A stretch of DNA of 64,000 bases, taken from positions 21,982-85,981 of the forward strand of contig JBDKLC010000004.1 of the NCBI GenBank assembly GCA_039795775.1, written 5' to 3'. This DNA is from Candidatus Parcubacteria bacterium. GTDB lineage: Bacteria > Patescibacteriota > Minisyncoccia > Phycocordibacterales > CAIZLB01. Below the pieces are notes generated by a model. That model saw nothing but the letters and a program-made list of their open reading frames with translations, searched no databases and was not told the DNA's origin. Of this stretch, positions 8,834 to 62,201 are shown piece by piece. The translations under genes were made by a program, and so were the position numbers. Each line of letters opens with the position of its first letter. Positions within the stretch are counted from its first letter, which is position 1.

Positions 8834-8868
8834 AAACAAAAAATCCGCATTGCTGCGGATTTTTTGTG
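8834..8868 (-). terminator. Rho-independent terminator of hup
   Basis: AATCCGCA-ttgc-TGCGGATT hairpin with T-runs on both sides. Confidence 0.6.
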
Positions 8869-8908
8869 TGGGTTGTATTCGAAACTGAAATATAAGTAGA
8901 GTTCTTAC

Positions 8909-9181
8909 TTATTTTACAGCGTCTTTGAGTGCTTTCGCAGCTCGGAACTTTGGAACATTCATAGATGGAACATTGATAGTTTCACCTGTTCGTGGGTTTC
9001 GTGCTGATCGAGCTTCTCGCTTCTTCACTGAGAAGATACCAAGACCTGCAATTGAAACTTCTTCACCTTTCTTAAGTGTTGCAATGATGTTTTCGATAAT
9101 TGTATCAACAACTTGTTCAGCCTGAACTTTTGTTGTACCGATAACGTCATGCACTTTTGCAACGATGTCTGCTTTGTTCAT
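8909..9181 (-). CDS. hup: DNA-binding protein HU
   Basis: 90 aa; MNKADIV...GLGIFSVKKREARSARNPRTGETI arm motif of HU/IHF family. Confidence 0.85.
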   Translation of the reverse strand: MNKADIVAKVHDVIGTTKVQAEQVVDTIIENIIATLKKGEEVSIAGLGIFSVKKREARSARNPRTGETINVPSMNVPKFRAAKALKDAVK

Positions 9182-9296
9182 AGTACTTGTTTTAAAGTAT
9201 TAAAGCTTTTAAATATTCGAACCTTCTGTCCTTAGAATTCATTATATAATAAGCCATTTTTTGCGCAATAGAATGAACAGTGCGACTCAAAGTTGC

Positions 9297-10829: not shown

Positions 10830-10841
10830 TGTAGTTTAAGG

Positions 10842-11411
10842 TTAGAGTACTTTGTCTACGATGCCGTATTTCTTGGCTTCGTCGGCTGACAGGAAGAAGT
10901 CTCGTTCTACGTCTTTTTCAATCTTAGAAAGAGGTTGACCTGTTGTTTTTGATAATATTTTGTTAGAAATTTCTCGGAGTCTGAGGATTCGTCGAGCACT
11001 GATTTCGATATCTGTTGCCTGGCCTTCAGCTCCGCCATGTGGCTGGTGAATCATGACATCAGAAGTAGGGAGGGCAAATCGCTTGCCTTTTGCACCAGAA
11101 GTGAGGATTATAGCGCCCATTGAAGCCGCGATACCTACGCAGATAGTAGAAACATCATTTTTGATATGATTCATAGTGTCTACAATAGCGAGACCAGCAG
11201 TAACTGATCCTCCTGGACTATTAATATAGAGATGGATGTCTTTCTTTGGATCTTCTGATTCCAAGAAAAGAAGCTGTGCAATGATAATATTGGCTACATT
11301 GTCATCAATTGGACCTCCGAGGAAGATAATATTGTCTCGAAGAAGTCGGGAATAGATGTCATATGCTCGTTCACCCAATGGTGACTTTTCGATAACTGTA
11401 GGGATAAGCAT
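10842..11411 (-). CDS. clpP: ATP-dependent Clp protease proteolytic subunit
   Basis: 189 aa; [18 protein letters not shown] and catalytic-Ser context typical of ClpP. Confidence 0.9.
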
Positions 11412-22424: not shown

Positions 22425-22466
22425 TATTCAGAATGAGATGGAGATACGGTGATATAATGTATATAA

Positions 22467-23678: not shown

Positions 23679-23710
23679 AGATTGAGTATACTAAGGTCTC
23701 TAAATTTATT

Positions 23711-24055
23711 ATGAAGAAAATAAAAACTATATCTAAAGCGATCGTTGGAACATTTTGTGTATATGTGTTGGGTATGCTCATGACTACATCTCCAGTAGAT
23801 GCCGTAATGCGAGCAAATTTTCCTGATGCCAACCAACTTCAACCACTTCCACAGTCTATAGCCCCAAGTCCAAAGGGGAATATAAATGCTACACATAAAG
23901 TAGCTCCCGACGTACAAAAAAATCCTGCACCAGTAGAGGAGGCAACGACTTCTCCAATACAAAAAGCCGAGGGTTTCTCTCTCCCTTGGCTTATAAGTAC
24001 GCTCTCTGTTGTTTTGTTAGTAATTGCTTTGACTCTCGTTCTCAAAAAGAAATAA
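23711..24055 (+). CDS. Small secreted protein with C-terminal hydrophobic anchor and KKK tail
   Basis: 114 aa; N-terminal signal, Pro-rich middle, C-terminus FSLPWLISTLSVVLLVIALTLVLKKK. Confidence 0.4.
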   Translation: MKKIKTISKAIVGTFCVYVLGMLMTTSPVDAVMRANFPDANQLQPLPQSIAPSPKGNINATHKVAPDVQKNPAPVEEATTSPIQKAEGFSLPWLISTLSVVLLVIALTLVLKKK

Positions 24056-24068
24056 TCTTTATTTCTCT

Positions 24069-25454
24069 TTAATTACTTGTCCAACTGAGTGGTTGATATC
24101 CTGAACTTGAAAGAGGAAAGCTTGGTGGTGCCGCGTAGAGAAGATTACTATCATATGTACTTTCTGTTGTCTGATATCCGGATGTAACATCATCTGAGCC
24201 ATTGACCCATGTCCATGTCCACTGACCGAATGTCATAATCGATCCGTACACTGTGATTTTATTTTTAATTTCACCTGAATAGAAAAAGAATTGTGCACTT
24301 CCGTTTTGAGCAATAAGTGCGGCGTCTATTTCGAGGTCATCAGGTGCTCTGTATGTCACCACGATATCTTTTTGTGCAAGAAGGCCAAGAGAATGATTAC
24401 CATCTTTTGCGAGGTAGGTAATATTATTTGGAATATAGATTGTTGGAGCGGTTGCTGCATTATAAGGGAGTTTTGATGCCGCAACCATGACACGTCCATT
24501 TACTACACCTTCTACCCACACGTTATCTTCGATATATATAATCCCGTTCGATGGAATAGCTTGGGTTGAAAGAAGTGTTCTGTTTTTATAGTCAATATCT
24601 TCGTTTCGTGCGTTTCCTGCAACATCCCAACCTGATGGTGTAGACCAAACACTTGTTACCTTGTAGATGCTTACAGTACCGTTTGAGTTGAATACGAGAG
24701 AATATCCTTGGCTGTTTGATGGAGCGAGATAAATACCGCCTGATTGTGCGTTTGCTTTCATACCAGCGAGGTTTGATGTGAGGGCAGAGAAGTCTACGGC
24801 CGGTACAGGATACTGCCAGAAATTTTTTGTTGTTTGGTTTGCGCTTCCCCAAATGCCAGCTTTTGTTGTAGGACAAGGACTTCCTTGTGAAGAAGGACAA
24901 CTATAAGTAGATTTTGCCGATGTAATAGGAGCATTTCCTGTTCCATCGAATCGAATTCCGTTATTAGACTTGAGCTGACCGTTAACTGTTTCATTGTCGC
25001 CCACCCAGATGACTGCATTTGTAAGGAAAGAGTATTGTGCAAGGGAAGGGATACCGTATTTTGCAGTAATTGTTCGCTTTATTTGCGGCTGATCTGTAGT
25101 CCAGCCAGTAGAAGAAATAGTGACTACAGTAGAGCCTGTTGGTGGAGGTGTGATAGTGAGACTGTATGTGCCGAGAACTTTTTGAGTATCAGTATCGACA
25201 TAGTTTCTAATATATGGACCAGATGTAGCTGTACCGTTTGTGTAGTCAGTTGGATAGTGAGCCAATCGCCACTGATAGTAGTTAATACCAGCCTCAGCAA
25301 TTTGTAGAGCCTGTTCTTTTGAAACAGTGGTAGCAAGTACTCGTGTTCGGATGACAAGCGATTGAATGATAGGCATCATCATCAACGAAAATATAAAGAT
25401 GACGATAAGAAGTAACACTAATATTTCTCCACGTTGTTTGTTTTGATGAGCCAT
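24069..25454 (-). CDS. Large pilus-associated protein (PilX/minor-pilin-like), N-terminal hydrophobic anchor
   Basis: 461 aa; N-terminus RGEILVLLLIVIFIFSL hydrophobic helix, Thr/Ser/Asn/Gly-rich remainder; co-oriented with two prepilin genes upstream. Confidence 0.4.
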   Translation of the reverse strand: MAHQNKQRGEILVLLLIVIFIFSLMMMPIIQSLVIRTRVLATTVSKEQALQIAEAGINYYQWRLAHYPTDYTNGTATSGPYIRNYVDTDTQKVLGTYSLTITPPPTGSTVVTISSTGWTTDQPQIKRTITAKYGIPSLAQYSFLTNAVIWVGDNETVNGQLKSNNGIRFDGTGNAPITSAKSTYSCPSSQGSPCPTTKAGIWGSANQTTKNFWQYPVPAVDFSALTSNLAGMKANAQSGGIYLAPSNSQGYSLVFNSNGTVSIYKVTSVWSTPSGWDVAGNARNEDIDYKNRTLLSTQAIPSNGIIYIEDNVWVEGVVNGRVMVAASKLPYNAATAPTIYIPNNITYLAKDGNHSLGLLAQKDIVVTYRAPDDLEIDAALIAQNGSAQFFFYSGEIKNKITVYGSIMTFGQWTWTWVNGSDDVTSGYQTTESTYDSNLLYAAPPSFPLSSSGYQPLSWTSN

Positions 25455-25459
25455 CTAAT

Positions 25460-26113
25460 TTAGTTTCCTAAGTTTGTTTTTAAGCTTCGAAGTGTTCCAC
25501 CGGCTTGAATTGTATACGTCGTTGTCGCTGTTCGAATATTTTGTACCTTAACGAGTAGATTCATTTTAGCAAATTTTACCTGAGTGATGTTCACAGGTTG
25601 TGTAAGTGCAGATGTTGTTCCTGCATATGTATCAGCATAGTAATAAAATATTGGTGTTGATGTCCCGTTAGAAACATCAGTGAGTACAGTAGAAACTGTT
25701 TCAGAAGCAGAGTTGTATGTCAGCGGATTTCCAGACGGTGTAATAATGCCTTTGAAAAGAGAAGTGCCTGAAAGATAATAACGAACACGTCGTACAGTTG
25801 TAGAGCTGTTTGAGCCGAATGTTGTGTAAAGAATAATTTGAGATGAACTTGCATCATTGAGAGCCGCCGCACCATTATTTGCCGTTGTAGAGTTCCGTAA
25901 TTCGTTCGAAAAGTTAAAGACTACCAATCGAGCCTGATCAACGCCGTTGATTGCTTTTGTTTGTTGAGTAGATGTAACAAATATTTCTCGGAGCATTGTT
26001 GTAGCTCCAAGCATGATGATTGAGAATATACCGATAGTTACTACTGTTTCTACAAGTGTGTAACCAGGCATATATGACCGTGCATATTTTTTTGAACTTA
26101 TTTTCATGTGCAA
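25460..26113 (-). CDS. Type IV pilin-like protein (prepilin-type N-terminal cleavage/methylation domain)
   Basis: 217 aa; PGYTLVETVVTIGIFSIIM matches the class III signal (G|[FY]TLxE plus hydrophobic helix). Confidence 0.65.
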   Translation of the reverse strand: MHMKISSKKYARSYMPGYTLVETVVTIGIFSIIMLGATTMLREIFVTSTQQTKAINGVDQARLVVFNFSNELRNSTTANNGAAALNDASSSQIILYTTFGSNSSTTVRRVRYYLSGTSLFKGIITPSGNPLTYNSASETVSTVLTDVSNGTSTPIFYYYADTYAGTTSALTQPVNITQVKFAKMNLLVKVQNIRTATTTYTIQAGGTLRSLKTNLGN

Positions 26114-26122
26114 TATGTTTGC

Positions 26123-27916
26123 CTAAGAACTAAGCAACACTGTAAGTACATTATATCCGCTTATGTTCAAATTTGTTACTGTCTTTGTTGTATAACCTGT
26201 CATAGATGTTTGCACTTGATAGTCATTTGCAGCACTGAGTCCAGGGAACATAACTTGTCCCGGAGTAAAGCAACCTGATACATAGTTCACATCGAGGCTT
26301 GTAAGTACGGGTGTAACTGTTGTTGTACTGTTACTAAGATATGCTTTGTATCGAAGATATCGGTTATTGTTGTGAACACTACTAATAGATGTACCTGGCA
26401 CCGTGTAGTAGGTAGTTGAGGCACCATCTGGACCTAAGAAATTCCACGTAGTAGTCGAACCATCGTTACTTGAGGCAATTTGGAATCGTAGGGTTGTTGA
26501 AGCTGTTTGAGACTGAGGTTCCCAGTTGAGAGTCGTATAGAGGGTTGATGTTGAACCAGAATCAAATGTAGAAGACTGCAACCAGCCTGATGATGAATAA
26601 ACACCGAATGTTTTCTTGAGTCGTACACCAGTAGGGAGAGTAGCTGTATCAATATTTCCATCATTTGAGAAATACATAGTACTTGTACCCATATTTGCTT
26701 GTCCTACACCACCTGTCCAATCTTGTTGAGAGAAGGCACTACCGCCAGTAATAAGAGTATCGTCATACCCAGATCGTGTGAGTCGTACATTTGCTCCTTC
26801 GATAGCCACTCCAGTTGCAGCATCTTTTACAATTACCAAAAGACTATTTGTTGTTATAGGGCCAACAATAAGGTTAAAGTTCTGAGATGTCTGAGGAAGG
26901 ATGTTAATTTGCTGGATAGGAGATGATCCATAAATCATATAACTTGAAGTAGAGAGTGCTGGGGTATAGTTGTCCCATTCAATATTTGAAAGCACCACTT
27001 GGCCACTACCGTTTGATGTATAGGTATTATTAAACTTGTAGACACTCGGAGTACCAATGATTTTTGCACCTTTTACCCCGATTCCGACATTTGATAGAGG
27101 TGCACAGCTCTGGTTGAGGGTATTAAAGGTAAGATTACTCAACTTATCGATAGAAAAACTGATTTGAGTCACTGTTCCATTCAAAATCGTAGCATCTGGC
27201 TTAGTTGGGTTAGGGTTTCCAACTGAGACAGGATATGTCTGATCTGAAGAATACCCTGTTTTTGTAGCAGTTACATGATAGTTATTTGAACTCTGAGGGA
27301 GACCCACTTCTGTCCAGTAGCCATTGGCATCAGTGGTTCGGGTAATGTTGATATCTGGGGTTAAAGCCGTATTTGTGATGTTTATTTGGGCTCCAGGCAC
27401 AGGCTGACCTACGGCGTCGAATACTTGTACTGTAAAAGCACCCGCATTATTGGTGTTTTCAAGACCTGCTGGGGTGATATTAGTAACAAATGTTGTTACT
27501 ACGTTAGTTCGGGTGTTTTTTATGTTTAATTTGACCTGTTTGTAGTCTGTTGGGGCAGGATCAGTGCTTGACGCGATTGTTCCATCTGCTGGGTCGTCTA
27601 CAAAGCTACTTTCATAGTAGATTTGATAGGTAATGTTGTTATAGCTTGTCGATGTGGCATTTGGAAGGTCTACAAGGATACCAGTCGGGTTACCGTTTAC
27701 GGTACCAACCTGGCTATAGGGAAGGTTTCTAACAATTTCCATATACTGAGCAGCGAGATTTGAAATAGTAGTGTTTTCTCGATACACACCCGCGAGCTTA
27801 ATAATAAGCGTACTTGTAGAGTAGACAGTAAGAGCGAGCCCAGCAAAAATACCGATACTAATAAGTGTTTCAATTAAAGTAAATCCTTTTTGATTTCTAG
27901 AGATAGAACGTTTCAT
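26123..27916 (-). CDS. Large type IV pilin (prepilin N-terminus plus ~560-aa Thr/Ser/Asn-rich domain)
   Basis: KGFTLIETLISIGIFAGLALT canonical prepilin motif; start placed at MKRSIS within ORF 26123-28006. Confidence 0.7.
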   Translation of the reverse strand: MKRSISRNQKGFTLIETLISIGIFAGLALTVYSTSTLIIKLAGVYRENTTISNLAAQYMEIVRNLPYSQVGTVNGNPTGILVDLPNATSTSYNNITYQIYYESSFVDDPADGTIASSTDPAPTDYKQVKLNIKNTRTNVVTTFVTNITPAGLENTNNAGAFTVQVFDAVGQPVPGAQINITNTALTPDINITRTTDANGYWTEVGLPQSSNNYHVTATKTGYSSDQTYPVSVGNPNPTKPDATILNGTVTQISFSIDKLSNLTFNTLNQSCAPLSNVGIGVKGAKIIGTPSVYKFNNTYTSNGSGQVVLSNIEWDNYTPALSTSSYMIYGSSPIQQINILPQTSQNFNLIVGPITTNSLLVIVKDAATGVAIEGANVRLTRSGYDDTLITGGSAFSQQDWTGGVGQANMGTSTMYFSNDGNIDTATLPTGVRLKKTFGVYSSSGWLQSSTFDSGSTSTLYTTLNWEPQSQTASTTLRFQIASSNDGSTTTWNFLGPDGASTTYYTVPGTSISSVHNNNRYLRYKAYLSNSTTTVTPVLTSLDVNYVSGCFTPGQVMFPGLSAANDYQVQTSMTGYTTKTVTNLNISGYNVLTVLLSS

Positions 27917-28047
27917 TGAGGTTTGGAGAACTGAGTAAATTTTACCACATATGTGAGATGTGTGTGGAGCAAAATGATGTGGTCTGGTGTGTATTTTGAG
28001 GTACAACTATCTCCCGTCTATTTCTTACATCTGCTATAATTTCGAAC

Positions 28048-30050: not shown

Positions 30051-30485
30051 TTATGAGAGTGAAATTTCTGTTTTGATCTTTTCGAGTACTTGTTCAGCTT
30101 CGCCTTGTACGTATGTCTTGTGTGGCATATCTTCAATTCCATCATCAGATATTCTCGGAATAAGGTGAATATGAGTGTGAGAGACTTGTTCTCCATTCAT
30201 CATTACCATCATTCCATCAGAATCAACCGCATTTCGTATATCGATGGCTAGCTTTCGGGCCGTAATGATAAGACGACACATTGTTTCGTCTGGGGTAGTA
30301 AGGATATTTTCGAAATGGTCTTTTGGAATAACAAGCGTGTGTCCAGGATTTATTGGTTTAATATCGAGAAAAGCAAAGGTATTGTCGTCCTCATATACCT
30401 TATGAGCTGGGATTTCCCCTGTAATAATTTTACAAAAAATACAATCGTTGTGTGTTTGGTGTAGGTCTTGAGTCATAAGGCACAT
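30051..30485 (-). CDS. HIT-family (histidine triad) hydrolase
   Basis: CIFCKI...HTHIHLIP histidine-triad motif; start at internal Met of ORF 30051-30542. Confidence 0.75.
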   Translation of the reverse strand: MCLMTQDLHQTHNDCIFCKIITGEIPAHKVYEDDNTFAFLDIKPINPGHTLVIPKDHFENILTTPDETMCRLIITARKLAIDIRNAVDSDGMMVMMNGEQVSHTHIHLIPRISDDGIEDMPHKTYVQGEAEQVLEKIKTEISLS

Positions 30486-30521
30486 TGTATGATAAAATCG
30501 GCGAATAGCAATTGCTACCTT

Positions 30522-32219
30522 ATGCCAAATTACGCATTTCAACCCTCAAATGGCACTACGTTGACCGAACAACTCTTGTTCAGTCGAGGCCATAAAACAA
30601 AAGAGGCGCAAGATGCATTTCTTAGTCCAGACTACGATAGGGGTATTCACGACCCATTTCTCCTCAAAGATATGGATGTAGCCGTAGAACGGATTGTTCG
30701 AGCAATCAAAAACAATGAAAGAATTGTTGTGTATGGTGATTTCGATGCAGATGGGGTACCCGCGTCAGTGCTTATGCATGATTTTTTTAAGAAAATTTCA
30801 TATACCAATTTTTCAAATTACATCCCACATCGACATCTTGAGGGGTTTGGACTCCACAAGGATGCCATTTCGAAAGTGAAGGAAGAGGGAGCCCAGCTTC
30901 TCATTACGCTCGATTGCGGCATTACTGATGTTGATGAAGTCGACTTTGCAAACAGCCTCGGCATTGACGTCATTATCACGGATCACCATTTGCCAGGGCC
31001 TGAGTTGCCACAGGCGGTGGCTGTTGTAGATCCAAAACGTGCTGACTGCTCGTATCCATTCGATATGCTCTGTGGAGCCGGTGTTGCATTCAAACTTGTT
31101 CAAGGACTTCTTGCATATGATCGATCTCATGAAAACGTCTGGAATGTAAAAGAAGGATGGGAAAAGTGGCTTCTCGATATGGTGGGCATTGCCACACTTT
31201 CTGACATGGTGCCGCTTCATGGCGAAAACAGAGTGCTCGCATATTTTGGTTTGAAAGTTCTTCGAAAGTCACCTCGACTTGGTTTGGTGAAATTACTTAA
31301 ATCACTCGATATCAAACAACAACATCTTGTTGAAGATGACATCGGATTTTTGATCACGCCTCGTATCAATGCTGCATCTCGAATGGCAAACCCAATGGAT
31401 GCTTTCAATATGCTTACAGCTGCTACTGATGAAGAAGCAGAACGAACTGTTACATTTTTGAATACATTAAATGTTGAAAGAAAAAGTGCTGTTGCTGTAA
31501 TGATGAAAGAAATTAAAAAGAAAGTTGAAGGAAGAGATCTTACATCAAAATCTGTTTTTGTTTTAGGAAATCCAAATTGGAAACCGTCGCTTCTTGGACT
31601 TGTTGCAACATCACTTGTTCGTGAATATGACCGACCTGTTTTTTTGTGGGGGAGATCAGAAGACGGAACGCTCAAGGGTTCAACACGATCAGATGGTCGA
31701 GTCGACATTGTTCAACTTATGCGTGCGGTACCACGAGAAATATTTATAGACTTTGGTGGTCACGTAATGTCAGGTGGATTTTCTTTGACCGACGATCATG
31801 TTCATCGATTTGAAGATGAACTTTGTACAGCACATGATTCACTTTCGAAACAAGAAATAAATTCTTCAGTACTTATTGATGCGCGTATCACATCAAATGA
31901 TGTGACATGGGACTTATTTTCAACGATTGAAAAACTTGCACCATTTGGAGAAGCAAATCCGAAACCACTTTTTATGGTGGAGAATGTTGTGCTTACTAAT
32001 GCAAAAACGTTTGGTAAAACAGGTGATCACTTTGAGGTTACATTTACAGGTGCGAAGGCAAAGAAACTTTCAGCTATTAAGTTTTTTATTGAAGATAACG
32101 AAATATACAAGAATTTAAAACCGGGTGATAAAGTTCATCTTGTTGCAAATTTAGAGAAGTCTATGTTCAGAAATTTTCCTGAGCTTCGACTGCGAATTGT
32201 TGATATACTACCAGCATAA
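30522..32219 (+). CDS. recJ: Single-stranded-DNA-specific exonuclease RecJ (start uncertain: alternative TTG at 30561)
   Basis: DHH (VVYGDFDADGV, ITDHH) and DHHA1 (GGH) motifs; the long ORF from 30468 would overlap the divergent HIT gene. Confidence 0.8.
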   Translation: MPNYAFQPSNGTTLTEQLLFSRGHKTKEAQDAFLSPDYDRGIHDPFLLKDMDVAVERIVRAIKNNERIVVYGDFDADGVPASVLMHDFFKKISYTNFSNYIPHRHLEGFGLHKDAISKVKEEGAQLLITLDCGITDVDEVDFANSLGIDVIITDHHLPGPELPQAVAVVDPKRADCSYPFDMLCGAGVAFKLVQGLLAYDRSHENVWNVKEGWEKWLLDMVGIATLSDMVPLHGENRVLAYFGLKVLRKSPRLGLVKLLKSLDIKQQHLVEDDIGFLITPRINAASRMANPMDAFNMLTAATDEEAERTVTFLNTLNVERKSAVAVMMKEIKKKVEGRDLTSKSVFVLGNPNWKPSLLGLVATSLVREYDRPVFLWGRSEDGTLKGSTRSDGRVDIVQLMRAVPREIFIDFGGHVMSGGFSLTDDHVHRFEDELCTAHDSLSKQEINSSVLIDARITSNDVTWDLFSTIEKLAPFGEANPKPLFMVENVVLTNAKTFGKTGDHFEVTFTGAKAKKLSAIKFFIEDNEIYKNLKPGDKVHLVANLEKSMFRNFPELRLRIVDILPA

Positions 32220-33032: not shown

Positions 33033-34439
33033 ATGAGCATGAAAAGTGCTCATATTTTTTTATTAATTTCTATTGTTTCAATTGTGGCACTCCGGTGGCA
33101 CTTTTTGCCCACAGACAGTCCACAAATCGCACAATTTTTGCTGTCATTACCGAGCAGTACAAGTAGTGTGCAAATGATAGGAAATATTATTGATGAACCA
33201 GAAAAAAAGAAGACCCACATAAACGTGTTGATAGAGGTTGAACAATATGGATTAGCGAGTAGCACGGACATGGACAACACCGTTCAAGTTCAATATAAAA
33301 AGAACGTCCTTGTCCTTGCCTCGATCCCACAATTTAGTTCAGTCAATTATGGTGACAAAATTAAAGTTGTCGGAAAAATAAAAAAGCCTGAAGTTATCAT
33401 TTCTGAAGATGGGTCTGAATTTAACTATCCGGCATATCTTGCAAAGAGCAACATTTTTTATGTGATGGATGCCAAGAGTTCTGAGATCATCTCAACTGGA
33501 GGAGGTAATCCAATTAAGTCAGATCTTTTGTTGTTCAAGAAACAGCTTTTGCAAAACATAAATAACGTACTACCAACACCTCACTCTTTTTTAGCAGGTG
33601 GTTTGATTATTGCAGGAAAGGGATCGCTTGATGATGAACTTCAGGAAGAATTTAAAAGGGCAGGACTTGTACATATTGTTGTGCTATCGGGTTTCAATAT
33701 TACGATTGTTGGGCAATTCATTATTTCTATATTCTCTTTTTTGCCACTGATGCTTAAAAGTATATTTGGAAGTTTGGGAATTATTGCGTTTTCAGTTATG
33801 GCAGGTAGTAGCGCAACTGTTGTCCGGTCGGTGGTCATGTCTATTATTGGATTGTATGCACGGGTATCCGAAAAAAGTTATGACGCTCTCCGTGGTCTGT
33901 TGGTTGCTGGTGTTGGTATGGTTGTTCACAATCCAAGAATTCTTTTGTATGATCCGTCGTTTCAACTTAGTTTTATGGCAACGCTCGGACTTATTCTTTT
34001 GGGTTCGACTGTTCAGAAATTTTTTATGTGGGTTCCTGAAACATTAGGGATGAGAGAAATTGTTACATCAACTTTTGCTACTCAGATATTTGTGACACCT
34101 CTTATCTTACATTTGTCAGGAATGATCTCTCTTGTTTCACTTTTTGTGAATATCTTAGTGCTTCCTGTTATTCCCTTGACCATGTTGTTCGCGTGTCTTT
34201 GCGGTGTGGTCAGTTTCATACATCCAAGTTTTTCAATACCATTCTCATTTGTTTCATACATTCTTCTTACATACGAGCTTTCACTAGTGCACATTTTTTC
34301 ATCACTTTCGTTCGCCGCAATTTCTCTTCCTAAAATTTCTACAGGCGCAACCTTAGCGGTATATTCAATATATGGAGTTATTTTTATTTGCATACAATTC
34401 GTACAAAAAATTTATAAAACAAAAAGCCCGCCAACATAG
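33033..34439 (+). CDS. comEC: ComEC/Rec2 DNA-uptake channel protein, N-terminal plus competence domain only (no MBL domain)
   Basis: 468 aa polytopic membrane protein; GLVHIVVLSGFNITIV competence-domain motif. Confidence 0.7.
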   Translation: MSMKSAHIFLLISIVSIVALRWHFLPTDSPQIAQFLLSLPSSTSSVQMIGNIIDEPEKKKTHINVLIEVEQYGLASSTDMDNTVQVQYKKNVLVLASIPQFSSVNYGDKIKVVGKIKKPEVIISEDGSEFNYPAYLAKSNIFYVMDAKSSEIISTGGGNPIKSDLLLFKKQLLQNINNVLPTPHSFLAGGLIIAGKGSLDDELQEEFKRAGLVHIVVLSGFNITIVGQFIISIFSFLPLMLKSIFGSLGIIAFSVMAGSSATVVRSVVMSIIGLYARVSEKSYDALRGLLVAGVGMVVHNPRILLYDPSFQLSFMATLGLILLGSTVQKFFMWVPETLGMREIVTSTFATQIFVTPLILHLSGMISLVSLFVNILVLPVIPLTMLFACLCGVVSFIHPSFSIPFSFVSYILLTYELSLVHIFSSLSFAAISLPKISTGATLAVYSIYGVIFICIQFVQKIYKTKSPPT

Positions 34440-53991: not shown

Positions 53992-54528
53992 TTGTTGATT
54001 TTTTGTTTATATAAAGTATGCTTTTGGCAGATGAACCCAACTCCACGCAATTCGTTTGTCGTGCTTGTGATGTCAGGACTCATCCTTGTAATTACGTATT
54101 TTCTCATCGAACTAGATATCGTCGATGCAAAAACTGGCCTACAGCTATTTCTTCTTGGGCAAGCTGTACTGCTTGTAGGACATGGAACCAACATGTTTAT
54201 TCCTTGGCTGCGAAACCGGTCACAGATGAAAATTACACGACTTGAAGCTTTGGTCTTGGATCAAGTTCGTCGTGCTATCAATGAGATAGTCGAGCGCCAG
54301 CACATGTTGGCAAAGTTCCGGATTTACTTCAAGGTAGATTCCGAAGAAGACTTCGAATTTGTAATCGATGGCCAGAAAGTTGTCGCCTACATATTTAAAG
54401 GGGGAAGTGTATCTATCATAGGACCACACCAAGCTCTTCTTTTGTTCGAAAGAGAAATAAAATTACGTAATCTCGAGGATTGGTCTTTTCAACCACTGCC
54501 CGAATCCACTGACTATGCAACTATTTAA
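53992..54528 (+). CDS. Hypothetical membrane-anchored protein (atypical codon usage)
   Basis: 178 aa, N-terminal TM helix; cgt/cgc/gcc-type codons; followed by GC-rich hairpin CCGCCGCAG-n8-CTGCGGCGG at 54531-54556. Confidence 0.4.
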   Translation: MLIFCLYKVCFWQMNPTPRNSFVVLVMSGLILVITYFLIELDIVDAKTGLQLFLLGQAVLLVGHGTNMFIPWLRNRSQMKITRLEALVLDQVRRAINEIVERQHMLAKFRIYFKVDSEEDFEFVIDGQKVVAYIFKGGSVSIIGPHQALLLFEREIKLRNLEDWSFQPLPESTDYATI

Positions 54529-54584
54529 CCCCGCCGCAGCCAAAGGACTGCGGCGGTTTCACTTTATGCTTTTAGTTCCTTATG

Positions 54585-55472
54585 TTATTTCCAAAAGAAG
54601 TACCCTACGATGGCAAATGTGAAAAGCGGAGAAAGCCAGCTCGGAATATGACCTCCAAGCGAATCTACGAGCATAATGATGCCCAAGACAGCAATGGAGT
54701 ACATAGCACCGTTCTTGAGGTATTTATAGCGCTTTACACGCTCTATATTGCCAATTGTGAGCCGACGTACCACTATGGCCCCAATACCGTTCCCAATGAG
54801 AATTAGGGGTATAGAAAGGGTAAAGGCAAAAGCTCCCAAAACTCCGTCTATAGAGAAGCACGCGTCAATGGCTTCAAGGTACAAAAGCATGGCTATATCT
54901 GACCTTCCTTTTGACCCATGCTCGAGAATTTCTCGTTCAGCTTGTTCTGCATTTTCTTTAAATCCATGAATGATAAAGAAGTCTGTTGAACCAACGACAG
55001 CACCGAATGCAAGCATTGGGTTGATGTGTATACCTTTCCATACAACAAACATAAGAATTACAGATGCGAGAGCGTAAAACCAAACTCCATGTCGGTGAAT
55101 AAACTTCTCACCAATGAGACCGTATTCTTTTCTCTCAAGGAAAAGCCAATGGAGAAATAGGAAGATAAGGAAGATGCCCGCACCTCCGAGGAGAATTGGA
55201 GCCGTTTTATCAATGATTTCGACTACTCGGGGATCGGCACTAAATGAAGCCATAAAAGCTTCTTTTGCACTAAGACCTCCCGCTGTCATGAGGATAAGCC
55301 AAGGAAGGAGTCCTCGAACAGCAAATACACCGATAAATATTCCCCAGGTAAGGAAGAGTTTTTTTGCTCGCTCAGACATTTTGCCGAGTACTTCTGCATT
55401 GATAACAGCATTGTCGATACTATTAACAATTTCAAAAAGGACGAGTCCCGCAAGTGTAAAAATGATATTCAT
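54585..55472 (-). CDS. DUF475/TerC-related integral membrane protein
   Basis: 295 aa polytopic; N-terminal FEIVNSIDNAVINAEVL motif characteristic of the TerC/DUF475 superfamily. Confidence 0.5.
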   Translation of the reverse strand: MNIIFTLAGLVLFEIVNSIDNAVINAEVLGKMSERAKKLFLTWGIFIGVFAVRGLLPWLILMTAGGLSAKEAFMASFSADPRVVEIIDKTAPILLGGAGIFLIFLFLHWLFLERKEYGLIGEKFIHRHGVWFYALASVILMFVVWKGIHINPMLAFGAVVGSTDFFIIHGFKENAEQAEREILEHGSKGRSDIAMLLYLEAIDACFSIDGVLGAFAFTLSIPLILIGNGIGAIVVRRLTIGNIERVKRYKYLKNGAMYSIAVLGIIMLVDSLGGHIPSWLSPLFTFAIVGYFFWK

Positions 55473-55516
55473 ACTATTTTCTATTATAATATGTACAACT
55501 AATTAAACACATACGT

Positions 55517-56074
55517 ATGATTGAATTTACAAAACCTATTCGAGTACTGATTTTGGCCAGTATGGTAATGACGTTAGCCTTTGGTATTTTTACTCCGTTT
55601 TATGTAGTTTTCATTCAATCGCTTAAAGGGAGCCTCTCCTTTGCTGGACTTTCTATGGGAGTATTTTCGATTGTGAGTGGAATCTTCATTCTGTTTATTG
55701 GAAGACTAGAATCTCATCATAAGAATAAAAAACATTTACTTGCTGTGGGATATTTCTTGAGAGGGCTAGCTTTTGTTAGTTTATCAGTTGCTGTAACAAA
55801 TATTCATCTGCTTCTTATTCAGGTTCTTTTAGGAATGGGTTCGGCATTCACTGTTCCTGCGTTCGATGCCCTGTATACAAAGTATGTTAATAGAGAAGAT
55901 TCAACAATGCAGTGGGCTGGGCTTCAAAGTATGACAAGTATTTCTACTGGTATTGCGGCCCTTGCCGGAGGTATTTTTATTGAATACTTTGGTTTTCAAA
56001 GTATATTTCTATCACTTGGATGTATTTCAATAGTGCTGTCTCTCTATATTTTCTCTAACAAAGAGTTGATCTAG
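55517..56074 (+). CDS. Six-TM membrane protein resembling half of an MFS transporter (possibly truncated)
   Basis: 185 aa with about 6 predicted hydrophobic helices; no stop-interrupted partner seen. Confidence 0.35.
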   Translation: MIEFTKPIRVLILASMVMTLAFGIFTPFYVVFIQSLKGSLSFAGLSMGVFSIVSGIFILFIGRLESHHKNKKHLLAVGYFLRGLAFVSLSVAVTNIHLLLIQVLLGMGSAFTVPAFDALYTKYVNREDSTMQWAGLQSMTSISTGIAALAGGIFIEYFGFQSIFLSLGCISIVLSLYIFSNKELI

Positions 56075-56743: not shown

Positions 56744-57529
56744 ATGGTTAAACTTAAGACAAAAGAAGAGATCGCTATCCTCCGAGAAGCTGGCAAAAAG
56801 GCAGCCTTTATTTTGAATGAACTAAAAAAGGACTGTGTTCCTGGGGCTTCTACTATGGATATCAATAAAAAGGCCCTCCAGATGTGTAAAGACGCTGGTG
56901 CAGAGCCTTCTTTCTTGGGGTACCAGCCATGGACAGCACCTCGACCATTTCCTGCAGCACTCTGTGTTTCTGTAAATGATGTGATTATTCACGGTATTCC
57001 AAACGAAAAACCAATCGTTCTCAAAGAAGGTGATATTGTATCGCTTGATATTGGTCTTATTTACAAAGGACTCTTTGTCGATACTGCCGTAAGTATTGGC
57101 GTAGGTGAAATAGATACCAAGGCTGCTAAGCTCCTTGAAGCAGGACAGAAGTCACTCGACGCTGCTATTTTTGTGTGTAAGCCAGGTATTCGAACAGGTG
57201 ACATTGGTCATGCTGTGGAATCTGCAATGGCATATTATAAAAAGACATATGGTTTCAATCTCGCGGATCCTGTCCTTGGCGGTCACGGTGTAGGACACGG
57301 TGTACATGAAGATCCATTTGTACCAAACTCAAGTGCAAAGAATCAGGGGTACCAGCTCAAACCAGGACTTGTTATTGCTATCGAACCAATGGTTAACGAA
57401 GGAACATGGAGAATCAAAGCAGACAACGACGGATATACCTACAGAACAGGCGACGGCAAGCGAAGTGTTCATTTTGAACACACTGTTGCTATCACAGAAG
57501 ACGGAGTTGAAGTTCTTACTGAACTCTAA
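56744..57529 (+). CDS. map: Methionine aminopeptidase type I
   Basis: 261 aa; pita-bread fold metal ligands (D..D..H..E..E pattern: SLDIGL, HGVGHGVHE, IEPM). Confidence 0.85.
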   Translation: MVKLKTKEEIAILREAGKKAAFILNELKKDCVPGASTMDINKKALQMCKDAGAEPSFLGYQPWTAPRPFPAALCVSVNDVIIHGIPNEKPIVLKEGDIVSLDIGLIYKGLFVDTAVSIGVGEIDTKAAKLLEAGQKSLDAAIFVCKPGIRTGDIGHAVESAMAYYKKTYGFNLADPVLGGHGVGHGVHEDPFVPNSSAKNQGYQLKPGLVIAIEPMVNEGTWRIKADNDGYTYRTGDGKRSVHFEHTVAITEDGVEVLTEL

Positions 57530-57599
57530 TTTTTCAAATTTCTCAGACAATTGAATAACTGCATTCATAATACGCACGTGTTGAGATATAATATGCGTA

Positions 57600-60410
57600 A
57601 TGGAAAAAATATTTTCTTCAAACGAACTTCCACAATTTAAATCTCCTGAAGAAGAACTCAACTATCTTCGACAAGTTGTTGCATCACGAGAATCAGCATC
57701 TCACAGCGAAGGGGAGAAGGTTGATCGTGCGGCAATCATTTCTGAAGAGCTCGCGCAGTATCGTGTTCAAGATGCCGACCGGGTACTTCACGAACACTTT
57801 AAAATTGCTGAAGCCGAGAAACAAGAAATAGTACTTGAGCTTTCACCAGAAACTCACGACAAAAAGATAGAAGAACTTCTTCCAATTCTCTACGAAAAAG
57901 GTATTTACAATACGCTTTCTATTATTGATGCGATGAATAGTCCTCACCTTGATGACGATTTTCACCGTTTTCTTATTGAATATATAAAGAAGGGCTATCC
58001 AGTGACGGGGCTTTCAGAAGATGCGCCTTTGTATAAAACGCTTACGCACACTCTCTACGAAGTAGCCCTCCCTGAAACAAAGAAAGAAGACCAAGCTAAA
58101 GCCCTCAAAGAGCTCTTGTCTTCTATGGAGCAGTTTTATGCAGGTATGCTTTCTGTAGCTCCAACAGCCAAAGGACACGGATTTAATGAATCTCAGTTTA
58201 CTATTGAGCTCGCAGTTGCCGATGGCAGCGATGAGTTTGTGTTTTATGTATCTGTCCCAAATGGCAAAACTGATCTGTTTGAAAAACAAATCCTTTCTAT
58301 TTTTGCCAATGCTCGTATTAGTGAAAAGAAGGACGATTACAATGTATTCAACTCAGAGGGTATTGCCGTTGCATCTGTTGCTACGCAAGCAAAGAATTCA
58401 ATTTTTCCAATAAAGACTTACGAAGGTTTTGACTATGATCCGCTCAACGTTATTTTGAATACACTTTCCAAGCTTGAAAAAACAGGAGAAGGTGCGGCAA
58501 TTCAAATTATTATCAATCCAGTAGGGGATTATTATGTAAAACACTACAAGGGTGCTCTCGATGAAATTCAAAAAGGTACAAGTGTAAGTAAGGCAATTGA
58601 TATTCAGCATTCATTCTGGGGAGAATTTAAAAAACTTGGACGAGATCTTGCTAAAGATTTGGTAAATGATGTTGTAAAAGGGGATAAGAAAAAGGATGAC
58701 AAACCTCCTGTTATTGATTCGATTGCCGTAGATCAGATTACAAAAAAAGTTTCTACTCCTATTGTAGAGACAAATATTCGAGTAGTTGCCTCTGCGTCGA
58801 GCCGGTCAAGAGCAGAACATATTATTTCTGATATCGAGTCTTCATTCAATCAGTTCCAAAACTCACTTGGAAATACATTGTCTTTCAAACGACAAGATGC
58901 TGGTTCACTCAAAAAAGCACTTCACAATTTCTCATATCGAATATTTACATCTGAAGAAGCCGTTCCATTGTCTCTTCATGAACTTACAAGTGTAATGCAC
59001 TTTCCAGTAGTAAGTTCTGGCTCATCACCACAACTCAAGCAGTCTAAAGCGGGAACAGCGCCAGCTCCACTCGATCTTCCAAAAGAAGGACTCTTCCTTG
59101 GTACAAACAAGCATCGAAACGTAGAAACTAAGGCATATATTGGCAAAGAGGACCGACTCAGACACTTCTATGCTATTGGGCAAACAGGTACAGGTAAGTC
59201 TACAATGCTCCGAAATATGATCATTCAGGATATAAAAGCCGGTCACGGCGTTTGTTTCATCGATCCGCACGGTTCAGATGTTCAAGATATTCTTTCTCAT
59301 ATTCCACCTGAACGGTACGACGACCTTATCTATTTTGATCCAAGTCATACTGATCGGCCTATGGCTCTCAACATGCTCGAATACAATCGAGATTTTCCAG
59401 AGCAAAAAACATTCGTAGTGAATGAGCTTTTTAGTATTTTCCAAAAACTGTACGGAGGTGTTCCCGAATCTATGGGGCCAATGTTCGAACAGTATTTCCG
59501 AAATGCGACTATGCTTGTTATCGAAGATCCGGATAGTGGTTCAACACTTCTCGATGTGTCACGAGTAATGGCGGTGAAAAGTTTCCGAGATATGAAGATT
59601 TCAAAGTGTAAAAACCCTGTGGTAGTACAGTTTTGGAAAGATATTGCTGAAAAAGCGGGTGGGGAAGGATCTCTTCAAAACATGGTGCCGTACATCACCA
59701 GTAAGTTCGACGTATTCTTGGCGAACGATATTATGCGACCAATCATCGCTCAAGAAAAATCTAGTTTCAACTTCCGTGAAATCATGGATTCAAAGAAGAT
59801 TCTTTTAGTAAATCTTGCAAAGGGCCGACTCGGTGATATCAACTCATCACTTATTGGTCTCATTCTCGTAGGTAAAATCCTTATGGCTGCACTTTCTCGA
59901 GTAGATTCGTTTGGTAAGGACATGAATGATTTCTATCTTTATATCGACGAGTTCCAGAACATTACGACACCATCTATTTCAACTATCCTTTCGGAAGCCC
60001 GAAAATACAAACTTTCGCTCAACATTGCGCATCAGTTTATTGCTCAGCTCGACGAAAAGATTAAAGACGCCGTGTTTGGTAACGTGGGCTCTATGGCTGT
60101 ATTCCGAGTCGGAGCAGAGGATGCTGAATTCCTCCAAAAGCAGTTTGAACCAGTATTTACAGCTAACGATATTATGAATATCGATAACATGAATGCATAT
60201 ATCAAAATGCTCTCACGTGGCCGACCAACCCGACCATTCAACATCGAATTTACATGGCCTCCAAAAGGAAATGAAAAGATTGTCGAAGACCTCAAACAGC
60301 TTTCGTATCTCAAGTATGGTCAGGATAGAGCAGAAGTAGAAGCCGCAGTAATGGAAAAATATAAAAAAGAACCTCTGATTCCGCGGCCATCACTGGTAGA
60401 TCAAAAGTAA
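57600..60410 (+). CDS. Soluble VirD4/TraG-like (FtsK-HerA superfamily) ATPase with ~500-aa uncharacterised N-terminal region
   Basis: 936 aa; Walker A GQTGTGKST, Walker B FYLYIDEFQN, TraG-D_C-like LNIAHQFIAQL...GNVGSMAVFRVGAED; no TM segments; TATAAT 11 nt upstream of ATG. Confidence 0.55.
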   Translation: MEKIFSSNELPQFKSPEEELNYLRQVVASRESASHSEGEKVDRAAIISEELAQYRVQDADRVLHEHFKIAEAEKQEIVLELSPETHDKKIEELLPILYEKGIYNTLSIIDAMNSPHLDDDFHRFLIEYIKKGYPVTGLSEDAPLYKTLTHTLYEVALPETKKEDQAKALKELLSSMEQFYAGMLSVAPTAKGHGFNESQFTIELAVADGSDEFVFYVSVPNGKTDLFEKQILSIFANARISEKKDDYNVFNSEGIAVASVATQAKNSIFPIKTYEGFDYDPLNVILNTLSKLEKTGEGAAIQIIINPVGDYYVKHYKGALDEIQKGTSVSKAIDIQHSFWGEFKKLGRDLAKDLVNDVVKGDKKKDDKPPVIDSIAVDQITKKVSTPIVETNIRVVASASSRSRAEHIISDIESSFNQFQNSLGNTLSFKRQDAGSLKKALHNFSYRIFTSEEAVPLSLHELTSVMHFPVVSSGSSPQLKQSKAGTAPAPLDLPKEGLFLGTNKHRNVETKAYIGKEDRLRHFYAIGQTGTGKSTMLRNMIIQDIKAGHGVCFIDPHGSDVQDILSHIPPERYDDLIYFDPSHTDRPMALNMLEYNRDFPEQKTFVVNELFSIFQKLYGGVPESMGPMFEQYFRNATMLVIEDPDSGSTLLDVSRVMAVKSFRDMKISKCKNPVVVQFWKDIAEKAGGEGSLQNMVPYITSKFDVFLANDIMRPIIAQEKSSFNFREIMDSKKILLVNLAKGRLGDINSSLIGLILVGKILMAALSRVDSFGKDMNDFYLYIDEFQNITTPSISTILSEARKYKLSLNIAHQFIAQLDEKIKDAVFGNVGSMAVFRVGAEDAEFLQKQFEPVFTANDIMNIDNMNAYIKMLSRGRPTRPFNIEFTWPPKGNEKIVEDLKQLSYLKYGQDRAEVEAAVMEKYKKEPLIPRPSLVDQK

Positions 60411-60501
60411 AGAAAATTAAAGGACAGCGACTATGAGACAAATCCCCGAAAAGGGGATTTTCCACATCTACAAATATAAAAAAGGTGTATAATCAAGGAC
60501 A

Positions 60502-61536
60502 ATGAAAGAGTCAAAGTTGTTACAATCTTCACAATCACTTCAAACACCTATCAAAAAGGAGATTGAAGCCGAGGTGTCACAACTTTCTAAACGACAATAT
60601 CTCCGATCAGCGATAGCAGCAGCAGGGGCTCTCACTATGGATGCCTTCTATCAGGATAGTGCACATAGCTCAACAGAATACACGACAGGACTTTTGTGGC
60701 TTCATGAAAAAGCATTGTCTGACGAAAAAGAACAAATTTCATTTTTCGTAGAAACTCCTACAAACAAAGAATGGATTAAACAAAAGCAGGGGAAGAGTCT
60801 TTGTGCCGAATTTGATATTCGAGAAATTACAAAGATAATTGCAGATCGACCTACATATCTCGAAATTGTTCACACACATACGTTAGCCGCTGTACAAGAA
60901 CCACAAAAACAGTATTTCAAAGGACGAGATATTTCCACACGAGAGATTGATGCGCTCGCACATCAGCCACCTACATTTATCGAAGTGCTCACTTCAAAAT
61001 ATTTCAATGAAATGTTTAAGGAATCAGGTGTAGATATTGTATATAAGATCGTGACACCACAAGGGGTATGGCGATACAGCATTGACCCTGAATCTGAGTT
61101 TATGGATCACTATTACATCTTTTCTCGAAGAGAAGATGATTTCATTCAGAAAGTTTCTCAGGATGATGCCGTAAAGATGTTCTTACAGCACAATCCAGGC
61201 ATTATGCACGATATGGAATTCGAAGATATTCGAAAACAGTTCCTCAGTCCTTCATCAAAGTTTTACGCTATTTTGCCTCATTATTTGAAACAAGAAGCTC
61301 ATACTCTCATGGCGTTCAAAAAAGAACATATTGACTCAAATCACGACTTCGAAGACATGATGGAACTCGAACACGATATGACCCTTCGAATGACATTTGC
61401 GTGTCCTGGAGAAAAGCAGAGAATCGTAAATGAGGACATCACATTGAAGAGACGACTTGGTATTGATCTCTCATTTACAGCAATCGAGCACATTCAGGCT
61501 GAGAAAGAAGCAAAAGTGGCAGAAGAAGATAAATAG
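60502..61536 (+). CDS. Hypothetical protein
   Basis: 344 aa, no recognisable motifs; co-directional with preceding ATPase gene. Confidence 0.4.
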   Translation: MKESKLLQSSQSLQTPIKKEIEAEVSQLSKRQYLRSAIAAAGALTMDAFYQDSAHSSTEYTTGLLWLHEKALSDEKEQISFFVETPTNKEWIKQKQGKSLCAEFDIREITKIIADRPTYLEIVHTHTLAAVQEPQKQYFKGRDISTREIDALAHQPPTFIEVLTSKYFNEMFKESGVDIVYKIVTPQGVWRYSIDPESEFMDHYYIFSRREDDFIQKVSQDDAVKMFLQHNPGIMHDMEFEDIRKQFLSPSSKFYAILPHYLKQEAHTLMAFKKEHIDSNHDFEDMMELEHDMTLRMTFACPGEKQRIVNEDITLKRRLGIDLSFTAIEHIQAEKEAKVAEEDK

Positions 61537-61595: not shown

Positions 61596-62201
61596 ATGAC
61601 AATTCATCACAAACCAGAGAGAACATTAGTAGTCATCAAACCAGACGGTGTTCAGCGAGCACTCATCGGGGAGATTATGCAGCGATATGAGCGAACAGGC
61701 CTCAAGCTTGTCGCTATAAAAATGCTTCAAGTAACTGGTGACTTTGTAGAAAAGCATTATACGCTCGACCCTCAGTGGAGACGAATAACAGGCGAAAAGA
61801 CAATTAAGGGATATCTCGACAAAGGAATGACTCCACCTACAACAGATCCTCTCGAAGTAACTGGTTTGTTGCTTGATAAACTAAAAAAATATATTACGAG
61901 TGGTCCGGTGATAGCAATGGTTTGGGAAGGTACACACGCGGTGCAGATTGTAAGAAAAATTACTGGAGGAACTGAACCTCTCACTGCATCTATTGGAAGT
62001 ATAAGAGGGGATTATCTTGTGGATTCATATGAAATGTCAGACTATTCGCAGCGATCTATTCGAAATCTTGTACACGCATCTGGAGCAGTCGCAGAAGCGG
62101 AAATGGAGATACCACACTGGTTCACAAAAGATGAATTAATTGACTATTCACACCACCGAGAACAGATTCTCTATTCAAAAGAGTTGAGCGACATATTTTA
62201 G
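61596..62201 (+). CDS. ndk: Nucleoside diphosphate kinase (long variant with internal insertion)
   Basis: ERTLVVIKPDGVQRALIGEIMQRYERTGLKLVAIKML N-terminal NDK signature, NLVHASG catalytic-His region; ~50 aa longer than typical. Confidence 0.7.
   Translation: MTIHHKPERTLVVIKPDGVQRALIGEIMQRYERTGLKLVAIKMLQVTGDFVEKHYTLDPQWRRITGEKTIKGYLDKGMTPPTTDPLEVTGLLLDKLKKYITSGPVIAMVWEGTHAVQIVRKITGGTEPLTASIGSIRGDYLVDSYEMSDYSQRSIRNLVHASGAVAEAEMEIPHWFTKDELIDYSHHREQILYSKELSDIF

Follow-up and report, generated by a model that had tools for sequence, protein, structure and literature searches.

Organization of the gene and features of the encoded protein

The stretch of DNA analysed here, referred to throughout as the window, comprises 64,000 nucleotides of contig JBDKLC010000004.1 from a Candidatus Parcubacteria bacterium assembly (GCA_039795775.1), a Parcubacteria/Paceibacteria metagenome-assembled genome. 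The gene under study, located on the plus strand at 57600..60410, encodes a soluble ATPase of 936 amino acids (aa), which belongs to the VirB4/VirD4 branch of the FtsK-HerA superfamily and represents the long form of a family characterised by the N-terminal domain DUF8128. The open reading frame (ORF) is intact, the assignment being supported by Pfam matches, homologues and synteny, and the predicted product is identical to protein RL094_211 of an NCBI metagenome-assembled genome ('Candidatus Parcubacteria bacterium'). Searches returned more than 3555 homologues, of which the best 120, all full-length, share 63-87% identity with the query and have the same length, domain order and motifs. The first-pass annotation, which was made from the sequence alone, described a soluble ATPase of the VirD4/TraG/HerA superfamily preceded by an N-terminal region of ~500 aa. 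This much was confirmed, with Walker A and B motifs intact, matches to four Pfam models and no transmembrane anchor.

The protein can be divided into four segments. The first 140 residues (57600..58019) form a helical extension, as judged from the secondary structure of the predicted model, which is present only in the long soluble subfamily and which contains an invariant motif, H116..DFHRF(120-124). This is followed by the DUF8128 core (aa ~141-470; 58020..59009), an alpha/beta domain composed of beta-alpha-beta units in the AlphaFold2 (AF2) domain model, and then by an interdomain linker (aa 471-495; 59010..59084) with the conserved motif PQLKQSKAGTAPAP..LPKEG. Columns Q478 to P490 of the linker are almost invariant, and the segment is modelled with low confidence, the predicted local distance difference test score (pLDDT) being <50 for aa 470-486. 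The remainder of the protein (aa 496-936; 59085..60410) is a RecA-type ATPase domain, as indicated by Pfam, alignment and model, and has a helical insertion at aa ~584-720. The Walker A motif, or P-loop, GQTGTGKS (aa 527-534; 59178..59201) and the Walker B motif YLYIDE (aa 779-784; 59934..59951) can both be read directly from the sequence. Invariant columns in an alignment of 49 homologues fall mostly in this motor domain, and include G527, Q528, T529, G530, G532 and K533 of Walker A, D783 and E784 of Walker B, and the region of R801/Q812. No transmembrane segment was evident in aa 1-500, in which the best 19-residue Kyte-Doolittle window scores 0.97; the protein has a single hydrophobic stretch (aa 747-765, score 1.94), which is buried in the ATPase core immediately ahead of Walker B.

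The gene is located between map, which encodes methionine aminopeptidase (56744..57529, plus strand; annotated Peptidase_M24 by Pfam in relatives), and two further ORFs on the same strand, the first encoding an acidic, lineage-specific protein of 344 aa (60502..61536) and the second, ndk, encoding nucleoside diphosphate kinase (61596..62201; Pfam NDK, E 4e-37). The order of ATPase, 344-aa ORF and ndk given in the first-pass annotation was confirmed, with adk and map preceding. The 344-aa ORF is separated from the ATPase gene by 91 nt, whereas the spacer between map and the ATPase gene is 70 nt (57530..57599) and holds one promoter-like site, TTCATA-17-TATAAT (57564-57592). The TATAAT hexamer, which is a consensus match only, ends 8 nt 5' of the ATPase ATG, hence the leader of the ATPase mRNA would be almost nil if this site were used. 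Promoter-like matches were not found above the level of shuffled sequence (21 versus 16.5 expected).

Conservation of the genomic position

The genomic context of the gene was examined by tblastn with the window's proteins in a scan of relatives comprising one genome per species, in which 566 were found and the best 80 loci retained. A same-strand map gene precedes the ATPase gene in 36 of these 80 loci and ndk is located downstream in 37, with one or both present in 44, fractions that represent lower bounds as many of the loci are on short contigs. In syntenic loci the usual order is S5-L15-secY-adk-map-ATPase-ndk, followed by DUF2238-like and beta-CASP RNase (RNase J-like) genes. Likewise in the window, S5, L15, secY, adk and map precede the ATPase gene on the same strand. 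The same gene order is seen in relatives with 69-85% identity whose contigs carry Pfam annotation, and the position of the ATPase gene is unchanged in relatives with as little as 54% identity. Among the 23 loci that contain all of the markers, median identity to the window is 61% for the ATPase, SecY and S5, 55% for L15, 49% for map and 47% for adk, although the value for the ATPase is somewhat inflated since these loci were picked by ATPase similarity.

The possibility that the gene had been acquired by mobile insertion was also examined, and every test was negative. GC content is flat across the window (0.39-0.42), with nothing indicative of insertion in composition or skew; there are no tRNAs or flanking repeats around the ATPase gene and no integrase nearby, and no relatives of the ATPase were found on IMG/VR viral contigs. 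The map/ndk synteny, the SecY-like level of conservation and the lack of mobile-element signals therefore show that the ATPase gene belongs to the vertically inherited core and stands in its ancestral position, as opposed to being an insertion. The window gene is, in other words, an ordinary example of a gene that is very common in Patescibacteria, found where it usually lies, and does not point to a new system.

A different view was taken in the first-pass annotation, according to which the ATPase and the 344-aa protein would constitute a horizontally inserted two-gene module, associated with phage defence or DNA transport, that had displaced the infA-rpmJ-rpsM-rpsK-rpoA-rplQ block from a normally invariant ribosomal neighbourhood. 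Defence systems do include ATPases of the HerA/VirD4 type that are accompanied by unknown partners, and the expected block is indeed missing after map: infA, rpmJ, rpsM and rpsK were detected neither in the window nor within 10 kb in any locus by tblastn with E. coli queries, a search that should be sensitive enough for proteins as conserved as these. However, nothing has been replaced, since map in relatives is typically followed by the ATPase gene and ndk, and the alpha-operon genes simply lie elsewhere in this clade. A match to the PADLOC model mad8 (E 4.7e-10), which might be taken to favour a role in defence, is weak and covers only the generic motifs of the ATPase core, and no other PADLOC system was matched beyond a similarly generic resemblance to HerA. 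With the ATPase syntenic over such a range of identity, and with neither a conserved pair nor a mobile context, an inserted module is considered extremely improbable.

The proposed pairing with the 344-aa protein fared no better. Only three homologues of this ORF were found among 5.8 billion clusters, all of them in the closest relatives, with at least one located, as in the window, between the ATPase gene and ndk (near relative L085). The ORF is absent from all 80 species-level loci, has no match in Pfam, NCBIfam, PADLOC or PHROG, and shows no similarity to any neighbour ORF of 82 loci. The 344-aa protein was accordingly rejected as a conserved partner and is an unrelated, lineage-specific neighbour that stands outside the conserved unit, the ATPase itself being an ordinary conserved gene at this position in relatives. 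These two outcomes are the ones that the first-pass annotation had named as refuting its reading, and the inserted defence pair is thereby refuted.

Both the map-ATPase and the ATPase-ndk spacers behave as variable slots, with the genes abutting (<~250 nt) in roughly half of the syntenic loci and lineage-specific ORFs amounting to 0.5-6 kb filling these slots in the remainder. In one locus (L078, 4968-12700), ndk directly follows map and the ATPase gene is situated ~3.6 kb further on, past genes for DUF2238, beta-CASP, L20 and IF3, indicating that the ATPase gene can relocate locally while the flanking genes stay in place.

The N-terminal region

The N-terminal ~500 aa, which were initially thought to be novel, correspond to a catalogued domain. 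DUF8128 (PF26449) is precomputed on the identical database protein and on all 120 of the homologues listed; the Pfam copy used for the scan of the window has no PF26449 model. A phmmer search with aa 1-490 returned 1020 representative clusters (50% identity) at E<=1e-3, and the domain is found in proteins of Patescibacteria by the thousand, as well as in certain large phages of Bacillus. No mention of DUF8128 was found in a literature search.

Structure prediction was conducted with aa 136-492 alone, using an alignment of 60 sequences with 26-81% identity to the query, and resulted in an AF2 model with a pLDDT of 89.7 and a predicted template modelling score (pTM) of 0.86. Comparison of this model with the PDB by Foldseek gave 14 matches at E<=1e-3, every one of which was a TrwK/VirB4 chain (E 1.6e-6 to 7.6e-4; query TM-score, TMq, 0.37-0.46, with 0.46 for the best match), the next matches being unrelated ferredoxin-like folds of low probability. 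Among the viral models in BFVD, the domain matched gp156 of phage G (E 1e-19, TMq 0.62) and the VirB4-like gp155 (E 1.7e-7). As modelled, then, the core of DUF8128 matches the fold of the N-terminal domain of VirB4. Sequence profiles did not provide corresponding support, there being no signal in hhalign comparisons of the N-domain profile with TrwK, TrsD or gp155; the full-length profile alignment extends from residue 386 into the part of VirB4 that precedes its P-loop, a stretch that is not significant by itself.

A model of the full-length protein was of mediocre quality (pLDDT 63), with values <50 in the helical insertion and in some of the motor, and for this reason no structural interpretation is given to the ATPase domain. 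When submitted to Foldseek, this model nevertheless retrieved TrwK/VirB4 of plasmid R388 in first place (E 3e-9, ~940 aligned columns), with HerA (4d2i; 2e-5), DotL (7e-5) and TrwB (4e-4) in lower ranks.

The origin of the N-terminal extension was considered separately. The extension (aa 1-140) occupies the place of the N-terminal transmembrane helix of a membrane-anchored subfamily, described below. The idea that it might be a fused copy either of the small ORFs (114-162 aa) found 5' of the anchored forms or of the U96 protein was rejected, hhalign returning probabilities (Prob) of <=0.4.

Relationship of the motor domain to known ATPase families

Four Pfam models passed their gathering scores in the C-terminal half of the protein: TraG-D_C (aa 778-845, the match commencing at Walker B; 28 versus 22 bits), TrwB_AAD_bind (23.1 versus 20.5), T4SS-DNA_transf (20.2 versus 20.1) and DUF87, the last being confined to the surroundings of Walker A. 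Members of the family are annotated in databases as 'TraM recognition domain-containing' or 'type IV secretion system DNA-binding domain-containing' proteins. Searches of the PDB by sequence only gave marginal matches near Walker A to TrwB, the best PDB match by this approach, and the motor compared with TrwB alone gave an hhalign Prob of 94.8. Profile comparisons were more informative. The motor aligned with a profile of seven Gram-positive VirB4 proteins with Prob 99.0 (E 7.6e-18) and with a profile of seven Gram-positive type IV coupling proteins (T4CPs) with Prob 98.7 (E 3.8e-16); values for the family profile were 98.6 (E 4.8e-16) and 98.0 (E 3e-13), respectively, and a control comparison of the Gram-positive VirB4 and coupling protein profiles with each other gave 97.5 (E 6e-12). 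By this measure, the distance of the ATPase half from Gram-positive VirB4 is about the same as that from VirD4. In light of these values the protein is best placed in a branch of its own within the VirB4/VirD4 ATPases, its architecture being that of VirB4 and its weak Pfam signatures those of VirD4.

The likeness to VirB4 (TrwK of R388; TrsE-type) lies in the soluble two-domain organization, an N-terminal alpha/beta domain being followed by a C-terminal RecA-type ATPase. Given this architecture, the status of VirB4 as best structural match for both the full-length and the N-domain models, and the slightly better hhalign values against VirB4 than against T4CPs, the protein could conceivably be a bona fide VirB4 orthologue, i.e. 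the primary ATPase of a type IV secretion system (T4SS) encoded away from the rest of the system. This seems very unlikely, however. The protein scores 16.1 bits against TIGR00929 (VirB4_CagE), for which the cut-off is 643, and matches neither CagE_TrbE_VirB nor AAA_10 in Pfam; VirB3/PrgI, VirB6 and VirB8 genes are absent from beside the ATPase both at this locus and at 80 long-form loci; in the T4SS loci described below, a distinct VirB4 (P-loop_TraG/AAA_10) is encoded alongside the DUF8128 protein; and Patescibacteria VirB4 proteins form a separate monophyletic clade in a published survey (PMC12102498).

With T4CPs (VirD4/TraG/TraD; TrwB of R388) the protein shares a Walker A/B nucleotide-binding domain that matches the T4CP models of Pfam, and a helical insertion where the all-alpha domain of those proteins lies. 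It differs in having, instead of an N-terminal transmembrane domain, an extra ~500 aa composed of the VirB4-like domain and the helical extension, in the lack of relaxase or T4SS linkage at the window locus, and in scoring far under the NCBIfam cut-offs (39.8 versus 366 bits for SXT_TraD and 35.3 versus 250 for CD1115). Other NCBIfam matches, including CedD and VirB4, are also far below threshold. Resemblance to HerA and FtsK extends to membership of the ASCE P-loop superfamily, with a DPHG motif after the Walker A strand, and HerA is the next-best structural match of the full-length model after VirB4. However, the PADLOC HerA model scores just 18 bits and no NurA-like partner is present among the annotated neighbour genes, while FtsK_SpoIIIE scores 16.2 bits against a threshold of 24 and neither the transmembrane nor the gamma domains of FtsK were recognised. 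By comparison, membership of the DUF8128 proteins of Patescibacteria, in which DUF8128 is followed by a VirD4/HerA-type P-loop ATPase, is direct.

Relatives in Bacillus phages

The protein is also matched over aa 169-920 by PHROG 5156 (E 1e-79), the members of which include gp156 of phage G, gp27.4 of SPO1 and homologues in phages JL and CP-51, and BLASTP against Bacillus phage proteins gave 23% identity over aa 215-871. The phage proteins have the same DUF8128-plus-ATPase architecture but are missing the first ~150-200 aa, and have no transmembrane helix. In phage G (L083, 1448-5590), the gene immediately before gp156 is gp155, which encodes a VirB4-like ATPase (P-loop_TraG/AAA_10). In SPO1 (L084, 771-6281), gp27.4 is followed by gp27.3 (Replic_Relax), with gp27.9, encoding an Alp7A-like actin, a few genes upstream. 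Large Bacillus phages thus carry pairs of conjugation-type ATPases.

Three forms of the DUF8128 ATPase

Inspection of 211 full-length members that were fetched revealed three forms of the ATPase. The long soluble form, to which the window protein belongs (n=117, median 947 aa), has the helical N-terminal extension of ~140 aa, and its motor shows 85% identity to that of the window protein. In the membrane-anchored form (n=68, median 828 aa; motor identity 53%), a single N-terminal transmembrane helix replaces the extension, with Kyte-Doolittle scores of 1.9-3.5 within the first 60 aa. The short soluble form (n=26, median 743 aa; motor identity 37%) has neither extension nor transmembrane helix. 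The shorter members of the family begin at query residue ~145-200.

The short form was found inside Patescibacteria T4SS loci in all three of the places that were examined. These loci adjoin dnaA-dnaN, and the DUF8128 gene (728-736 aa) is divergent from PrgI/VirB3 genes and a separate VirB4 (P-loop_TraG/AAA_10). The two that are fully annotated (L106 and JGI 3300075153) also have TraC-like/TrsD and four T4SS_pilin genes downstream. Two of the short-form loci extend over 1-11187 (L105) and 1-20211 (L106), and VirB4 is split into two ORFs in the former.

Several further arrangements were observed. An anchored paralogue lies in a same-strand run of genes, none of them annotated, in L086 (6933-16573) and L087, the order being an FtsQ-like POTRA protein, a 597-aa multi-transmembrane protein, a 162-aa acidic protein, the ATPase, four small multi-transmembrane proteins and a 529-aa proline-rich secreted protein. 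The L086 operon consists mostly of unannotated membrane proteins, together with a GT39-like protein, and has no recognisable T4SS parts. In L021 (~21200-22802), a second family member without the N-terminal half is present ~9 kb downstream of the long form, starting just before the P-loop and with 41% identity to the window motor, and a single genome can therefore carry both a long form and a motor-only paralogue. Finally, a pair of ORFs encoding acidic, helical and unannotated proteins (~420 aa and ~96 aa) adjoins the long form on the same strand in ~10 of the 80 loci, either upstream (L041, L042, L044, L058) or downstream (L019, L029, L033, L051, L073). The pair, which is not present in the window, could be a lineage-specific accessory module.

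Candidate functions of the ATPase

Surveys of T4SS genes in Patescibacteria have been published. VirD4-like homologues, numbering 5713, were recorded in 2918 of 3026 assemblies, just 148 of them being near virB4, and the Patescibacteria VirB4 clade was recorded in 2407 assemblies (Quinonero-Coronel et al. 2025, PMC12102498). T4SS clusters in the phylum are usually without an adjacent coupling protein, despite VirD4-like homologues being nearly universal (PMC12102498, PMC10633639), and neither a coupling protein nor a relaxase is reported to be recognisable in the Se T4SS cluster (Wang et al. 2023, PMC10633639). DUF8128-type proteins are probably lumped with VirD4 coupling proteins in such surveys, and the authors of one of them regarded exaptation of the VirD4-like homologues as something that could not be excluded (PMC12102498).

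Most likely, judging by analogy with related ATPases, the protein would function as a hexameric, ATP-driven translocase of a substrate that is probably DNA, whether serving T4SS-like machinery or acting independently of it. The reading that is favoured, albeit tentatively and at about even confidence or slightly less, is that the ATPase serves as a substrate-translocating, coupling-type motor for the chromosomal, relaxase-less T4SS-like apparatus of the phylum, the components of which are encoded elsewhere in the genome. It is favoured because one subfamily is embedded in T4SS loci, because a coupling protein is generally absent from those loci, and because the N-terminal domain, as modelled, is of a VirB4 type that could serve in docking. 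By analogy with VirB4, VirD4, HerA and FtsK ATPases, the protein would be expected to assemble as a ring, probably a hexamer, in which ATP hydrolysis would push a polymeric substrate, most likely DNA, or else energise a membrane machine. Since the protein has no membrane anchor of its own, docking would presumably proceed via the VirB4-like domain together with the N-terminal extension.

Several observations weigh against a role in coupling. VirD4-like homologues occur in more assemblies than Patescibacteria VirB4 does (2918 versus 2407), and in S. epibionticum the T4SS genes were reported to be essential but the T4CP homologue was not (PMC12102498). The equation of the published 'T4CP homologues' (PMC12102498) with DUF8128 proteins is, moreover, an assumption. 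The neighbours of the long form in the 80 loci included no recognisable T4SS gene, relaxase or additional ATPase; in these loci recurrent neighbours were annotated and non-recurrent ones annotated in part. The window motor is nearer to the anchored forms (~53% identity), which are themselves in housekeeping contexts, than to the T4SS-linked short forms (~37%). The VirB4-like character of the N-terminal domain, for its part, comes solely from a predicted structure, with TM-scores of 0.38-0.46, and the N-domain profile was without hhalign signal against the seven Gram-positive VirB4 proteins (Prob 0.1).

In canonical T4SSs, VirD4 is required for substrate transfer and not for pilus biogenesis. 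This might explain how the coupling ATPase can be dispensable in a cell for which the T4SS is essential.

The recurrent neighbours of the long form are housekeeping genes (map, ndk, adk, DUF2238, beta-CASP and secY, among others), and this feeds an alternative explanation, namely that an ancestral T4SS ATPase gave rise, by exaptation, to the long and anchored forms as T4SS-independent translocases of the cell's own DNA, perhaps for chromosome segregation or clearance at division, for recombination or repair, or for DNA uptake in nucleotide salvage. The operon position of the gene and its SecY-like conservation fit such a role. So too do the contexts of long forms located away from map, which follow rsmH-ftsL-like-ftsI in L064-L066 and L077 or are found close to genes for RmuC (five loci), a DNA-alkylation repair enzyme (two), RecG (two) and UvrB. 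Anchored forms, similarly, are found beside dnaX, near gyrBA and ComM-like genes, or after an FtsQ-like POTRA gene. T4CP-like genes, as noted, have a wider distribution among assemblies than VirB4 and for the most part lie away from it, and SPO1 gp27.4 has DNA-handling neighbours in the Replic_Relax protein and the Alp7A-like actin. However, genomes of ~1 Mb consist mostly of housekeeping genes, such that adjacencies of this kind are often expected by chance, and no single DNA-metabolism neighbour is kept across lineages. Furthermore, the short soluble members of the family lie within T4SS loci, and Saccharibacteria reportedly have ftsK (from matches to the term in papers only), in which case a replacement for FtsK is not obviously needed. 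A T4SS-independent housekeeping translocase is consequently regarded as rather unlikely, if a serious competitor to the coupling-type motor.

A broader proposal, which is considered distinctly doubtful, is that the type IV secretion ATPases have a third branch, marked by DUF8128, present throughout the phylum and composed of a VirB4-type N-domain and a VirD4-like motor, that became a soluble housekeeping translocase after loss of the anchor in Paceibacteria. The ATPase would then be co-located, and possibly co-expressed, with secY-adk-map-ndk, and the motor could import or handle host-derived DNA or nucleotides, or serve in chromosome handling at division. If true, this would tie the reduced epibiotic lifestyle of these bacteria to an exapted conjugation ATPase, and the proteins of SPO1-like and jumbo Bacillus phages would represent viral uses of the same motor.

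Whichever function applies, the DUF8128 family is nearly universal in a phylum of tiny genomes, conserved at the level of SecY, derived from conjugation ATPases, and catalogued but uncharacterised. The VirB4-like fold predicted for DUF8128, the split into three forms and the fixed position of the long form in the secY-adk-map-ndk neighbourhood should provide handles for work in tractable Patescibacteria.

Other features of the window

No relaxase or mating-pair-formation genes were recognised in the window, the other content of which includes nusA, trigger factor, tpiA and pgk, and a run of ribosomal-protein genes 5' of S5 that was assigned from ORF sizes and order. The gap between secY and adk (53992-56074) contains a 178-aa ORF, a gene on the minus strand for a DUF475/TerC membrane protein, and a half-length major facilitator superfamily (MFS) transporter gene. 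The last encodes 185 aa, covering profile positions 1-171 of 347, and may be a truncated remnant. All three ORFs are lacking in the closest relative (L085), in which adk directly follows secY.

The NDK protein encoded in the window comprises 201 aa, compared with 201-211 aa in relatives, and its Pfam NDK match is split between aa 8-58 and 94-180, which implies an insertion of ~35 residues in what would otherwise be a canonical nucleoside diphosphate kinase. A type IV pilus set is situated ~25-35 kb upstream of the ATPase gene (20667-28006, 30468-32219 and 33033-34439), comprising PilB-like T2SSE, PilC-like T2SSF and PilX_N proteins and an N-methyl pseudopilin with CarboxypepD_reg. Genes for RecJ and ComEC are close by, and together with the pilus genes these constitute the usual competence and pilus equipment of Patescibacteria.

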